Below the pieces are notes generated by a model that made no database searches, was not told the DNA's origin, and saw nothing but the letters and a program-made list of their open reading frames with translations. A program made the translations under genes and the position numbers. 64,000 nucleotides of DNA from Candidatus Poribacteria bacterium (GTDB lineage: Bacteria > Poribacteria > WGA-4E > PCPOR2b), in the NCBI GenBank assembly GCA_965208425.1, contig OZ242335.1, positions 188,544-252,543 on the forward strand. The letters are read 5' to 3'. Of this stretch, positions 15,556 through 41,498 are shown one piece after another (within the stretch, counting starts at the first letter, position 1; each line of letters starts with the position of its first letter).

Positions 15556-15896
15556 GGTACGGGTCTCCTCAAATATTATCATAAAAATTCCTTTAGGGGT
15601 AAAACCCCAAGGTTTACCTTTGGGATACACCCATGCTTTAGCGCATTTTTTGTTTGATGTTCCTGAACAAATATAGTACACTTTCTACAGTTACCGGCAC
15701 CGGGGAGCAGGATATAGACGCTGGTATAGGGGCAGGGCGTTGTCCCTTGCGAGAGACGCATTAAGACACCCGACGGGGTGCAGCGTCGTTGACCACACAA
15801 TTAGAAAGTAGAAAGTGGATTCCTAACAAGAATCCAAATGCTTCAGCTTTTGGAGTACGTCAAAGCATGTTTGTCTGTACAAGTAACAAGTCTTTA

Positions 15897-16055
15897 TGGT
15901 AGATCTTAGAATTAATGAGACACTCTCAATGCACAGCTAACCCCCTAAATCCCGCCCCCGATTTTATCGGGATTTCACTGACGCTCAACTTGTCAGGGGG
16001 ACTTTGGAAACTGCGCGAAAGCCGGAATTATTGGTACTGTCTACTTATTTATTTA
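15897..16055. mobile_element. MITE family 1 variant (1b) carrying the cccctaaatccc...cagggggactttgga module
   Basis: The tggtagatcttagaattaatgagacactctcaatgcaca... direct counterpart lies at 16250-16375. Confidence 0.5.
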
Positions 16056-36779: not shown

Positions 36780-37487
36780 ATGAATTATCAGGAGTTCCAT
36801 TCGTGGGAGATAACTCCCGCTGAGGCACGCCAGATCCAAAATGAACTGCGTAGTCAGGTGATATCCACAGATCGATTTGGCGACATCAAAACAGTCGCTG
36901 GGGTCGATCTTGGGTTTAAGCAAGACATCGCCCGTGCGTCAGTTGTGGTGTTGAGTTTTCCGGAGCTGCAGCTGATTGATGGCGTCCTCGTTGAAAGCCC
37001 TGTCTCCTTTCCTTATATACCCGGTCTATTATCTTTCCGCGAAACCCCTCCTCTTCTCAAAGCCTTTACCCAACTTAATACCGAACCAGATCTCATTATT
37101 GCTGATGGACAAGGGATCGCCCACCCGAGGCGCTTTGGAATAGCGTCGCATCTGGGATTAATTTTAGACAAACCAACGGTGGGGTGTGCGAAGTCGCGTC
37201 TATGGGGCAAACACAAACAACCCCAAGATGAAGCGGGTTCGATTGAATATTTGTACGACAAGGACGAAATTATCGGCGCGGCAGTTCGTACACGGTCCAA
37301 TGTCAGTGTGGTTTATATTTCGGTCGGGCATCAAATCTCTCTAGATTCAGCGATTCGGGTGACGCTCGCCTGCTGTCGACAGTACAGACTACCGGAAACG
37401 ACGAGATATGCACACCGAGCGGCAGCGGGACAAATTTCCCTACCCAAAAAACAGACTGAAGCGGAAAAGCAGCTTACACTATTTTAG
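36780..37487 (+). CDS. nfi: endonuclease V (deoxyinosine 3' endonuclease)
   Basis: [16 protein letters not shown] and [18 protein letters not shown] motifs. 235 aa. Confidence 0.85.
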
Positions 37488-38480: not shown

Positions 38481-39041
38481 TTAATTATTTTTCGCTCCTT
38501 CATCGATCCAGTCTTTGAAGAGTTGGATTTGGTCCTCAGGCAACGGTCCAGCCGGTGGCATGCCACCGCCATCAATCCGCTGGATAACCTTACTTCCGTT
38601 GCTATCTCCAGGGTTAAACACGGGACCAACAAGGCTACCTTTCTCAAAGCCTGCGTACGTCTCCAAATTGAGTCCTATCTTTGGATTGGGGTCAGCATGG
38701 CATCCTTGGACAGCACAACTCGCTTGAAGAATAGGTAAAATCTCTTCTTGGAACGAAACACCGGGTGGTGGTTCGGGTTGTTGCTCTGGTTGAGGTGGTG
38801 GTTCAGGTTGTTGCACTGGTTGAGGTTCGGGTTGTTCCTGGGGTGGTGGTTCGGGTTCCTGCTGCGGCACTGGTTGCGGTGTCGGTTCTGAGACAGGCTC
38901 TGGTTCGGGCGTAACGACATCACCACTTATATCATCGTCATCATCACCACTATCGCCACATCCTGTGACAAAGATAGGAAATACTAAGACAGCCAAACAA
39001 CTAATTGCGGTTACTAACAGATTTAAGCGTGAATACTCCAC
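38481..39041 (-). CDS. lipoprotein with Pro/Glu-rich linker and a Planctomycete cytochrome c-like (PSCyt1) domain
   Basis: I re-called the start at in-frame GTG 39041, preceded by AAGGAG at 8 nt. Lipobox VTGCGD. C-terminal ...ILPILQASCAVQGCH...GGMPP...LPEDQIQLFKDWIDEGA fits PSCyt1 with a CX4CH variant. The track's longer N-terminus has no RBS. Confidence 0.6.
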   Translation of the reverse strand: MEYSRLNLLVTAISCLAVLVFPIFVTGCGDSGDDDDDISGDVVTPEPEPVSEPTPQPVPQQEPEPPPQEQPEPQPVQQPEPPPQPEQQPEPPPGVSFQEEILPILQASCAVQGCHADPNPKIGLNLETYAGFEKGSLVGPVFNPGDSNGSKVIQRIDGGGMPPAGPLPEDQIQLFKDWIDEGAKNN

Positions 39042-39317
39042 GGTTGTTGCTCCTTTCAAATTGAGAATGTGAAATTTTAGGCTGGAAACCGTCCGAAATC
39101 TGTAAGGACGCTTCCAAAACCAAGAGGAGATTGACAAATGAAAACACTGGAAACAACCCCAATGCTTTAGCGTTGGGTCAGATGGCGTAATTTTGATTGA
39201 TAGTGACATCAAAATATGGCATAATTCCTTTGTCCTTGTGGGAAAGTTCTACGCCACCGCCCGGTGGTGTCTCCCACACCTTTTAGAACAAGGTGTAAGG
39301 CCAAACAGGACACACCC

Positions 39318-40418
39318 ATGTTAAAAACTCACAAAATAGCCTTAGATACAAACAACGTCCAAGCGACACAATTCGCTCAACATTGCGGCTATGCTCGTGT
39401 TGCTTACAATCACGTTCTTGCTGATTTTAAGGCTGGTTTAGCCAATGACGAGTGGTATAGCCATATAGAGTTAAACAAACGTTTTAATTCTGTCAAGCGT
39501 GAGCAATATGAGTGGTGTGACGAGTTAAACCAACGTGCTGCTCACAATGCGATTTACTTCAACTTTCAGAATGCTGTTAAGCGTTGGCAGTCAGGTCAGG
39601 GTCGTTTTCCAAAGTTCAAGAAGCGTTCCAAAGGTCAAAGTTTCCAAGCGGATGCAGGTCGAGGCACAACTATTATCGAAGGACAGCGTATAAAACTACC
39701 CAAGATGGGTTGGGTTCGTATGTTCCAAACACTTCGACACCTCGGCACTATCGTCAAAGTTGTCATCTCAAAGACAGCTAACCGTTGGTTCGCTTCTATT
39801 ACTGTAGATACTTTCGATAACGATACTATTGTTGACAATCGCCATTTACCTGTTGTTGGTGTTGACGTAGGTATCAAGCACTTAGCTGTCACGTCCGAAG
39901 GTGTATATCACGAAAACCCCAAAGCCTTAAAGCGTTACCAGCGGAAGCTAAAACGGCTGCAACGTCAGTTAAGCCGTCGAAAGAAAGGGAGTCGGAATTG
40001 GCGTAAAACGAAAGCCAAGATTGCCAAGCTGCACTACCGAATCACCTGTATCCGACAAGATGCCCAACATAAGGCAACAACGGCTATCGTCAACGGTGCG
40101 AGTCGTATTGGGATGGAGTCGCTAAATGTTGCAGGTATGTTAAAAAACCACAGACTTGCAAAGGCATTATCGGACGCTTCGCTATCCAGTTTTCTCACGA
40201 TGCTTGCCTACAAATCAGAACGGATAGGTGTTAAAATTGTAGAGGCAGACACCTTCTACCCGTCGAGTCAGACGTGCTCGGCTTGTGGGGCAAAAGACAA
40301 AGCCCTGTCACTATCGGATAGGACGTACCATTGCAGTGATTGTGGTCATACACAAGACAGGGACCTTAACGCTGCAATTAACCTACGAAACGTCGCCATG
40401 GGACACACGGAGACTTAA
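39318..40418 (+). CDS. tnpB: TnpB (OrfB) RNA-guided endonuclease / IS605-family accessory protein
   Basis: RuvC-I VGVDVGIK, RuvC-II GMESLNV, zinc finger CSACG...CSDCGH, and RuvC-III DRDLNAAINL are all intact. Start at ATG 39318 (MLKTHKIALD) with an AGGA RBS. Confidence 0.85.
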   Translation: MLKTHKIALDTNNVQATQFAQHCGYARVAYNHVLADFKAGLANDEWYSHIELNKRFNSVKREQYEWCDELNQRAAHNAIYFNFQNAVKRWQSGQGRFPKFKKRSKGQSFQADAGRGTTIIEGQRIKLPKMGWVRMFQTLRHLGTIVKVVISKTANRWFASITVDTFDNDTIVDNRHLPVVGVDVGIKHLAVTSEGVYHENPKALKRYQRKLKRLQRQLSRRKKGSRNWRKTKAKIAKLHYRITCIRQDAQHKATTAIVNGASRIGMESLNVAGMLKNHRLAKALSDASLSSFLTMLAYKSERIGVKIVEADTFYPSSQTCSACGAKDKALSLSDRTYHCSDCGHTQDRDLNAAINLRNVAMGHTET

Positions 40419-40470
40419 AACGCTTGTGGAGATTTTGTAAGTCCTCACCTGCAACACGAGGCAAAAATCG
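40250..40470 (+). ncRNA. predicted omega-RNA (reRNA) region overlapping the tnpB 3' end and the IS right end
   Basis: Based on established TnpB biology only: the guide RNA derives from the 3' end of tnpB and the RE. No structure was computed. Confidence 0.25.
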
Positions 40471-40502
40471 TTGAAGCAGGAAGATAGCATGGAGATAATA
40501 CA

Positions 40503-41498
40503 ATGTCTACCAATCAGTCTATTAAGAATCCCAATGTTTCAACTTTGGGAGCAGTCAAAGTCATGATTAATACGGAAGTTGAGCCGGAACACCTGCAACG
40601 TATTCAACTGGTTTCCGACGATATTCAGATCGTCCAACCTCAAGACAATGAGGCACAACTCAAAGAGGTGGTAGACACCGATGTGATTCTCGGTGGAGTT
40701 AGTCGCGCTCTCTTTGAAAACGCCGAACAACTCAAATGGGTACAGGTACTTGGCGCAGGCGTTGATGGTGTCCTTTTTCCTGAGTTTGTCGAAAGTGATG
40801 TCATCCTGACAAGCGCGAAAGGATTTGTTGGACCCCATCTCGCGGATCAAACGTGGGCGTTAATCCTCGGCTTGCTCAGAGGGATTGGTCGTGCTGTCCG
40901 CGAACGAACTTGGGAAAACCGGATGTCTATTCGTGGAGAGACATGGGAACTTGAAGGATGTACGCTCGGCATCGTTGGACTCGGCGGCACGGGGATTGAC
41001 GTCGCTAAACGTGCACAAGGCTTTGATATGCGCGTGATTGCTGTTGATCCGGAAAATGTGGATCCGCCGCCATTCGTTCATGAAGTTTGGAAGATGGACC
41101 GGTTTTATGACCTCCTTGAAGAATCAGACGTTGTGTCAATCTGCGCTCCTTTGACGCCGGAAACGCATGGAATGTTTAATGATGCAGCGTTCCAGCGCAT
41201 GAAACCACACGCGCTGCTCATTAACGTAACACGCGGCAAGATTGTTGATGGGCCAAGTCTTCTTCGTGCCTTGAACGATGGACAGATAGGAGGAGCGGGA
41301 CTCGATGTTACACCAGAGGAGCCTTTGCCGCAGGATAGCCCACTTTGGGATCTGCCTAGGGTTATTATTACACCCCATGCGGCGGGTGGTTCGCCGATTC
41401 GGCTTGACCGGACGATTGGATTGTTCTGTGATAATCTCGAAAGGCTTATGGCGGATAAACCCCTATTGAGCGTCATAGATAAGCGAAAGGGTTATTAA
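40503..41498 (+). CDS. D-isomer-specific 2-hydroxyacid dehydrogenase (PGDH/GyaR-like)
   Basis: NAD-binding GIVGLGGTG...D and catalytic R/E/H contexts (ITPHAAGGS). 331 aa. Confidence 0.85.
   Translation: MSTNQSIKNPNVSTLGAVKVMINTEVEPEHLQRIQLVSDDIQIVQPQDNEAQLKEVVDTDVILGGVSRALFENAEQLKWVQVLGAGVDGVLFPEFVESDVILTSAKGFVGPHLADQTWALILGLLRGIGRAVRERTWENRMSIRGETWELEGCTLGIVGLGGTGIDVAKRAQGFDMRVIAVDPENVDPPPFVHEVWKMDRFYDLLEESDVVSICAPLTPETHGMFNDAAFQRMKPHALLINVTRGKIVDGPSLLRALNDGQIGGAGLDVTPEEPLPQDSPLWDLPRVIITPHAAGGSPIRLDRTIGLFCDNLERLMADKPLLSVIDKRKGY

Follow-up and report, generated by a model that had tools for sequence, protein, structure and literature searches.

The locus described here lies in a 64,000-nucleotide stretch of Candidatus Poribacteria bacterium contig OZ242335.1 (assembly GCA_965208425.1, positions 188,544 to 252,543 of the forward strand; hereafter the window, numbered from its first letter). 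It holds a solitary tnpB gene flanked by a PSCyt1 lipoprotein gene (− strand) and a D-2-hydroxyacid dehydrogenase gene (+ strand), neighbours that a first-pass annotation, made from the sequence without database searches, had named and that Pfam matches bear out. The gene belongs to a 1,416-bp element carrying tnpB only (window 39143–40558), and comparison with an empty site indicates that this element is inserted after ATG-AA, within codon 2 of the dehydrogenase gene. We consider it probable that the element is a non-autonomous, tnpB-only insertion sequence (IS) with an omega-RNA, and that its right end doubles as a translation start.

The tnpB gene and its relatives

The tnpB open reading frame (ORF) runs on the + strand from an ATG at 39318 to a stop codon ending at 40418 and encodes 366 amino acids; the 367 given in the first pass included the stop codon. 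An upstream GTG at 39264 was rejected as the start because all homologues have 366 residues and conservation begins at the ATG. The protein matches HTH_OrfB_IS605 (PF12323), OrfB_IS605 (PF01385; 2.6e-25) and Cas12f1-like_TNB (PF07282; 7.7e-22), each above its cut-off, which correspond to the HTH/WED-REC N-terminus, the OrfB_IS605 core and the C-terminal zinc ribbon. In phmmer searches of PDB it aligns over its full length with ISDra2 TnpB (8BF8, 8EXA and 8H1J; E 1.2e-54) and end to end with ISFba1 TnpB (8IAZ; E 9e-45), the IS607 TnpB of Ren et al. 2024 (PMC11061315).

The RuvC triad, D183 (VGVDVGIK; codon 39864–39866), E267 (IGMESL; 40116–40118) and D349 (QDRDLNAAINL; 40362–40364), all on the + strand, aligns with the catalytic residues of ISDra2 TnpB. 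Both the triad and the zinc-finger cysteines C320, C323, C339 and C342 (CxxC...CxxC) are invariant across 23 TnpB homologues of 55–94% identity, so that the intact nuclease proposed in the first pass is upheld by Pfam, by the PDB alignments and by residue invariance. Ratios of nonsynonymous to synonymous substitution (dN/dS) of 0.07–0.17 against eight relatives indicate that the gene is under purifying selection. The product, a predicted RNA-guided nuclease, adds to an already very large family. As the first pass also stated, no tnpA adjoins the gene, and neither a second TnpB nor any transposase gene was found in the 64-kb window.

The element's family is abundant in Candidatus Poribacteria, and more than 30 protein clusters share 83–94% identity with the window TnpB. 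Every one is 366 residues long, all come from sponge-associated metagenomes or 'Candidatus Poribacteria' metagenome-assembled genomes, and none of these copies has an adjacent tnpA; a scan of JGI metagenomes returned no close relatives (best 44% identity at full length, 50% over a partial match). The copies represent at least 10 independent insertions in Candidatus Poribacteria, in gene contexts that include BNR / FAD oxidoreductase, MR_MLE / hypothetical, SGL / glyoxalase, acetate kinase / AP_endonuc_2, clpP / clpX and SnoaL / sulfatase, among others. Because the contexts vary, the family is taken to be mobile or recently mobile, and domestication as a syntenic gene was rejected.

Element boundaries, target and guide

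The further genomic copies that the first pass had wanted for end definition proved numerous, and they define both ends and the target-adjacent motif (TAM). Conservation among independent insertions starts at 39143, just after an (A/T)TGAA flank, and stops at 40558 after ...CCCAATGTTTCAACTTTGGGAGCAGTCAA, so that the element terminates ...GCAGTCAA; the extent of 39225–40470 given before, with a right end near 40440, is replaced by these boundaries. Left flanks read ATGAA in 12 of 15 cases and TTGAA in the other three, that is WTGAA in 15/15, which points to (A/T)TGAA as the TAM.

Two empty sites fix the junctions. One, in locus L090, is syntenic with the window (EndoV, sucD, PSCyt1 on the − strand, dehydrogenase, BatA), and its sequence GAGGAGATTGACAAATGAAAGTCATGATTAATACGG runs directly from the left flank of the window element into the right flank. 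The other, L123, joins left and right flank for an insertion common to L001, L002, L117 and L118. There is no target duplication. AA stands at both junctions and once in each empty site, and the boundary is therefore ambiguous by 2 nt.

Around the native dehydrogenase start the empty site reads GAGGAGATTGACAAATGAAAGTCATGATT, with GAGGAG 8 nt upstream of ATG AAA GTC ATG. In the window the same start is stranded at 39124–39142 (+), where the Shine-Dalgarno sequence (SD) GAGGAG (39124–39129) and the ATG (39138–39140) are followed by AA and then by the element; translation from it would end after 10 codons at a TAG in the loop of the left-end hairpin. The native ATGAA serves also as target site and TAM. 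Beyond the right junction, the coding sequence continues from native codon 2 (40557–41498, +) as an intact ORF (Pfam 2-Hacid_dh_C, 5.4e-55) that is ~95% identical to its orthologues (94.6% to the empty-site copy in L090, 95% to P0121/P0122), with a dN/dS of 0.065, comparable to neighbour genes. The orthologues are uniformly 314 amino acids long and begin MKVMINTEV.

Both flanking ORFs, which the first pass had taken as listed, turn out to be chimeric with transposon sequence. The listed PSCyt1 ORF (38481–39212, −) carries ~58 extra codons from the left end of the element; the true gene ends near 39038 and encodes 185 amino acids in L090. The dehydrogenase ORF, in the ORF listing and from public gene callers alike, starts at 40503 within the right end (40503–41498), and its first 18 codons plus two bases are transposon-derived, so the annotated N-terminus of the dehydrogenase is, by this comparison, transposon-encoded. 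Public gene calls at seven other loci likewise begin at the transposon ATG.

With the right end at 40558, the guide would be taken from 40559 onwards, within the dehydrogenase coding sequence and ~100 nt downstream of the 40440–40470 proposed in the first pass. The predicted guide/target AGTCATGATTAATACGGAAG (40559–40578, +) is the first 20 nt of the right flank and corresponds to native dehydrogenase codons 2–8. The same 22 nt as in the right flank come after ATGAA in the empty L090 allele, and the guide 16-mer occurs once in the window.

The endonuclease V gene of the window also begins with ATGAA (36780–36784; MNYQEF...), an unoccupied site of the element's type.

The omega-RNA scaffold

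Covariation strongly supports an omega-RNA (right-end element RNA, reRNA) scaffold of ~170 nt after tnpB, at 40392–40558 on the + strand, overlapping the last 27 nt of the gene. Its predicted parts, all on that strand, are a 5' hairpin within the 3' end of tnpB (40392–40414), a RAGATH-18-like hairpin (stems 40428–40472), a stem that encloses an SD and an ATG (40490–40512), a small stem (40518–40527), a right-end hairpin 9 nt inside the right end (40530–40549) and a long-range pairing of 40422–40424 with 40550–40552. An omega-RNA at the 3' end of tnpB and downstream had been expected from the first pass; a foldable, covarying scaffold is indeed present there, extending as far as 40558 and with its guide at a different position.

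A broad MAFFT alignment of all downstream regions was too noisy, and restricted alignments together with a covariance model were used. The RNAalifold consensus of 11 sequences, from 42 nt before the stop codon to the right end, contains 41 pairs, and 14 of these show compensatory changes. When this alignment was turned into a covariance model, the RNA was detected after tnpB at 50 further loci. In a 52-copy alignment, itself fitted to the covariance model, paired cells make up 91.4%, against 70% in shuffles and 35–44% with slid partners; double-sided changes occur in 32 of the 41 pairs, and the covariation score is 0.361, against 0.127 for shuffles and at most 0.061 for slid partners.

Rfam yielded one suggestive match, RAGATH-18 at 40423–40482 (+), at 25.4 bits against a gathering threshold of 44.9 (E 0.069). 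RAGATH-18 is also the best match at the homologous position of the relative L032 (28.9 bits, E 0.0011), and it was not recovered in a wider E-value scan of eight loci or in a narrow scan of L011. At the gathering threshold there were no Rfam matches in 20 relatives or in the whole window, and since no relative reaches the gathering score we term the core RAGATH-18-like and do not assign it to the family. The covariance-model search suggested in the first pass is thus answered by the purpose-built model, with the Rfam match sub-threshold.

A second omega-RNA, with no tnpB of its own, lies at window 15590–15863 (+), where the model matches 15677–15863 at 40.2 bits (E ~1e-9). It is preceded by a hairpin like that of the left end (15604–15623) and a promoter-like TTGATG-17-TATAGT, terminates GTACGTCAA|AGCATGTTTG and has no SD/ATG stem. 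This stretch could be a miniature element consisting of left end, promoter and guide RNA that borrows TnpB in trans.

A proposed translation start at the right end

The 3' part of the scaffold carries what resembles a complete translation initiation region (40491–40558, +): an SD, GGAGA, at 40491–40495, seven bases, an ATG at 40503–40505, and 18 codons. This 18-codon leader, MSTNQSIKNPNVSTLGAV, closes with GTC AA|A and thereby rebuilds native codon 2 in phase. Among 12 copies the right-end SD and ATG are conserved with a spacer of 5–7 nt whose sequence varies, and the ATG and the 56 nt that follow it contain no indels and no stops.

We propose that the right end has a second role, as an initiation region for translation made up of this SD, the seven-base spacer, the ATG and the 18 codons in junction phase, and that the interrupted dehydrogenase would be translated as an N-terminal fusion, MSTNQSIKNPNVSTLGAV-KVMINTEV.... 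Host promoters would transcribe through the element, a step proposed because the interval from tnpB to the host gene shows no + strand terminator. In this way insertions that hit ATGAA start codons could persist, and tnpB and the omega-RNA would come under the promoter of the host gene. In the omega-RNA fold the SD and ATG are paired (40490–40512), so folding of the RNA or its binding by TnpB should compete with translation initiation. This translational rescue of a host gene is read from the comparative pattern. A promoter-like site at 40471–40499 was rejected as the driver of the leader, its start site lying at or beyond the ATG.

A search with the 30-residue chimeric N-terminus against 1.84 billion representative proteins, in which clustering hides such fusions, gave two matches. 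One of them, P0362 (49 amino acids, MSTNQSIKNPNVSTLGAVKKLIGADDEREEML...), is a read-out of the leader into another flank.

Occupied sites in two lineages

The dehydrogenase is one of several genes entered at the start codon. In the window lineage the element occupies an ATGAA start codon preceded by an SD at five or six of 10 independent sites. The genes concerned differ: an FAD oxidoreductase, a sulfatase, two AP_endonuc_2 genes and one whose N-terminus resembles a signal peptide (Pfam Glyoxalase). The native starts read MN(I/T)(A/T)PYDAIIVGGGHNG at L001/L117, where P0241–P0243 and the empty site L123 confirm the start, MKKLTRLAILIAVL at L009, MNTIVICCDTL at L010/L120 (the sulfatase) and MKIGLRIPG at L115; L116 is probably a further site of this kind. 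An SD-like run stands 7–10 nt upstream of ATGAA at each of these. At the remaining sites of this lineage a co-oriented gene follows the element at a distance of 6 (L003), 24 (L004) or 80 nt (L119), or the element comes after a convergent gene (L121). The right-end leader is in frame with a long host ORF at 7/10 sites of the window lineage.

As background we took 2,579 WTGAA sites in 389 kb of Poribacteria DNA. Gene-start-like sites number 58 (2.2%), and at most 7.7% of all sites are ATGAA followed by at least 100 open codons. The chance of five or more of 10 sites falling on start codons is then P ~1e-6 to 5e-4.

A second lineage (L036, L039 and L040; 52–54% identity) has a different right-end SD and ATG in the same junction phase. 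Its SD (GGGAGG or AAGGAGG) is part of the RAGATH-18-like hairpin, within the apical stem, and its ATG lies within a ...ATGA(C/A)GAAGCAAGAA strand. All three copies read into host ORFs of 323–498 codons, one of them with a Gfo/Idh/MocA-type N-terminus, EVKIGFIGCGG. Taken together, 10 of 13 insertions of the two lineages with a right-end start are in phase with a long host ORF, and eight or nine are on ATGAA start codons. Sister lineages without the right-end ATG show a phase-2 junction with a long ORF at 0/17 loci (Fisher exact test, p = 5e-5, or 1e-5 after the L040 end is corrected by 1–2 nt).

It is to our minds an evenly poised question whether, in two TnpB lineages of Poribacteria, the 3' portion of the guide-RNA gene has become a portable, fixed-phase translation start, with the elements homing to ATGAA. 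This target consists of the commonest type of start codon and two further bases. If the proposal is right, insertion on the first codons of a gene would be nearly harmless and would place the element under host promoters, a concrete way for a selfish RNA-guided element to lower its cost to the host by substituting the translation start that it destroys. Omega-RNA/TnpB assembly and host-gene translation would be in built-in competition on one transcript, and a guide-RNA scaffold sharing one sequence with a translation initiation region would be a new constraint for omega-RNA engineering. The arrangement also means that gene callers systematically give unrelated Poribacteria proteins chimeric N-termini (MSTNQSIKNPNVSTLGAV...). 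The open-access literature searched contained no prior description of start-codon targeting or of a WTGAA TAM in TnpB/IS607 elements, and to our knowledge the pairing of a start-codon target with a phase-matched right-end start, in two lineages, is undescribed. TnpB itself offers at most a compact 366-residue nuclease candidate with a defined omega-RNA (~170 nt), TAM (WTGAA) and guide position.

Divergence at shared sites

At every site common to different strains the element is far less diverged than its flanks. Synonymous divergence (dS) of TnpB is 0.135 between L002 and L117 (flanks 0.27–0.36), 0.10 between L010 and L120 (flanks 0.26) and 0.004 between L003 and L005 (flanks 0.09–0.11), and L001 and L002 have identical TnpB with flanks that differ by 4.6%. 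Such youth of the element relative to its flanks is consistent with recent spread into one site, as from TnpB-driven homing; repeated site-specific insertion and gene conversion are alternatives. It is the population signature expected of TnpB homing, here in natural sponge-symbiont populations.

Following TnpB biology reportedly worked out by Karvelis and by Altae-Tran in 2021 and by Meers in 2023, the ribonucleoprotein would be guided by the flanking sequence that starts at 40559 and would recognise (A/T)TGAA as TAM. The empty allele, ATGAA|AGTCATGATT..., would be its substrate, and repair of the cut by homologous recombination with an occupied copy would reinstate the element or spread it. 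Cutting of the occupied locus itself should be prevented, as family knowledge suggests, because GTCAA takes the place of the TAM there.

The empty-site locus L090 has a different TnpB upstream of its endonuclease V gene (L090 1–503). That TnpB is missing from the window, and homology resumes at L090:504 = window 36642. With the window element in turn absent from L090, presence and absence of TnpB are reciprocal between these close strains.

Alternative explanations

The chief competing account is an ordinary solo TnpB/omega-RNA insertion whose leader is incidental, the dehydrogenase being either knocked out, by a recent and mildly deleterious insertion, or translated from its native Met4 (ATG 40563) by way of a right-end GGGAG. 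We hold it to be rather unlikely, and several observations speak for it and against a translational role of the right end. The leader overlaps constrained omega-RNA sequence, and as the region is also scaffold, its conservation alone is no proof of translational selection. In the consensus fold a stem sequesters both the SD and the ATG, two of the three frames over the last 56 nt are open by chance, and the Met4 codon lies 4 nt beyond the junction and 11 nt after GGGAG, a possible alternative start. Downstream genes are intact between strains with a common insertion, at dN/dS 0.05–0.09, but the element is younger than the strain divergence, so these low values mostly predate the insertions. 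In L001 the FAD oxidoreductase gene has a +1/−1 indel pair, from decay or an assembly error. The proposal is further weakened by small site counts (13 vs 17), by distant-lineage right ends taken from model alignments (that of L040 being corrected by 1–2 nt), by the failure to find a cognate TnpA in the window or ~800 kb of fetched loci, and by a single-sequence minimum free energy of the scaffold no better than shuffles (z = −1.22), which is why the omega-RNA structure rests on covariation. Against an incidental leader, an internal ATG close by is lacking at most of the other start-codon sites (L001 MNIAPYD, L010 MNTIVICC, L115 MKIGL); the ATG and the 5–7 nt SD spacing are kept though the intervening loop varies in sequence and length; and two lineages with different right-end SD and ATG share one phase, start codons being occupied by those lineages only. 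A role as a domesticated, TldR-like TnpB acting as RNA-guided regulator of the adjacent dehydrogenase would account for a guide matching that gene's 5' coding region and for the lack of a transposase, and is very improbable: the RuvC triad is intact and invariant, unlike that of TldR, near-identical copies occupy at least 10 unrelated loci with their own flank as guide at each, the site is empty in a close relative and so not fixed, and GTCAA stands in place of the TAM at the occupied locus.

The transposase family is a separate matter. The element might instead belong to the IS607 family and be moved by a serine recombinase TnpA crossing over at the AA dinucleotide, which we regard as possible but doubtful. 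AA marks each of the two junctions and occurs a single time in either empty site, and the scaffold, with its ~170–185 nt, 5' hairpin, RAGATH-18-like hairpin and 3' extension before the guide, is laid out like the ISFba1 reRNA, in which a RAGATH-18 core lies between a 5' flank and a 64-nt 3' flank followed by the guide (Ren et al. 2024, PMC11061315; 8IAZ); the conserved GUGGAG...CG-UGAAGCAGGAA nucleotides match as well. Relatives from the same phylum at 38–51% identity carry a MerR-HTH + Resolvase ORF of IS607 type abutting tnpB, identified by Pfam in L032, L046, L055 and L064 and by sequence motif only in L051, L073 and L080. Some solo copies of the L032 group (L026 and L029) have kept the L032 left-end sequence ahead of tnpB, as if tnpA had been deleted from them. 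Yet a serine-recombinase TnpA is absent beside the window tnpB, and the ends of the L032 group are subterminal repeats (TATAGGTTTT motifs) without hairpins, the 3' part of the right end being non-homologous to that of the window element. The window clade has the layout of IS200/IS605 elements: one hairpin lies 15 nt in from the left end and another 9 nt in from the right, their stems covary from lineage to lineage while the CTTTAG loop is kept, the right end finishes TCAA, and insertion is 3' of a conserved 5-nt target without duplication. Its TAM, WTGAA, resembles the ISDra2 TTGAT and not AGGAG, the protein has a better alignment score with ISDra2 than with ISFba1, and the RAGATH-18 score stays below the gathering threshold. 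The 'IS1341-type' label of the first pass is accordingly descriptive: the hairpin ends are those of IS200/IS605, whereas the core is RAGATH-18-like and the nearest tnpA-bearing relatives are serine-type. Searches for a Y1 TnpA (regular expression and tblastn with IS608/IS200 queries, over the window and the ~800 kb of loci) found only a fragment in the distant cyanobacterial L072. On balance we lean towards mobilisation by a Y1 transposase in trans, though with somewhat less than even confidence, give the serine recombinase a clearly smaller share and leave the rest to an immobile element; under either transposase the element is non-autonomous.

Relation to known systems

ISDra2 TnpB (IS200/IS605; 8EXA, 8H1J) is the best natural solved match, sharing the RuvC triad and zinc finger. 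Both elements have hairpin ends, lack a target duplication and have a T-G-A-type pentamer as TAM, and in both the omega-RNA shares sequence with the 3' end of tnpB and reaches the right end. They differ in the Y1 TnpA (none found here), the RAGATH-18-like core, the start-codon target and the outward-reading right-end SD and ATG. From IS607 TnpB systems the window element is set apart by RAGATH-18 scores of 25–29 bits (below 44.9), by a TAM that is neither AGGAG nor GAGGG, by a 5' hairpin inside the tnpB ORF, by hairpin ends in place of repeats and by the lack of tnpA.

The nearest conceptual parallel is the IStron (a group I intron with an IS605/IS607 tnpB), in which restoring the host gene lessens the cost of landing. 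Translational rescue would be the translation-level counterpart of that strategy, with restoration by a replacement SD and start and an N-terminal fusion and not by RNA splicing; no intron family turned up when 38800–41000 (E up to 10) and the whole window were scanned with Rfam. Outward promoters or fusion-forming ends, as in IS1, IS2 and IS10 pOUT, also supply an expression signal to an adjacent gene. Those are cases of opportunistic transcription, whereas the window element would offer a phase-matched start codon at a target that is itself a start codon.

The left end and other features

The left end of the element spans 39143–39317 (+), with conservation from 39143 in independent insertions. 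Its subterminal hairpin, CCCAATGCTTTAGCGTTGGG, lies at 39158–39177 (+). Further in come a promoter-like TTGATA-17-CATAAT with TG (39197–39225, +; 10/12 consensus matches) and a structured tnpB 5' leader (39228–39312, +), for which seven sequences give 29 consensus pairs, 14 with compensatory changes; an alignment that included distant lineages was too noisy, and the restricted one was used. The hairpin ccaccgcccggtggtg that the first pass saw before the gene is present at 39255–39270, as the apical stem of this leader and not as a transposon end. Promoter-like site and leader are jointly deleted in the otherwise intact copies L001, L003, L004, L114 and L119. They are therefore dispensable for persistence, and copies without them must depend on transcription from outside the element.

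Two minor observations concern sequences around the copies. In L032 a sub-threshold HEARO (IscB omega-RNA) match lies at 391–487 (+; 29.2 bits against a gathering threshold of 83), ~2 kb upstream of the IS607-type element. A palindrome, CCCGAT(T/A)(T/A)ATCGGG, often inside GTCCGAAAGGATCCCGATTTATCGGG, is inserted at differing places between copies, namely the gap from the stop codon to the RAGATH-like hairpin, the loop of the SD stem and the left end (L001 5102–5127; right and left ends of L012 and L013; left end of L009). It also occurs in unrelated window DNA at 15952–15972 (gattttatcgggat) and may be a tiny mobile or REP-like Poribacteria hairpin.

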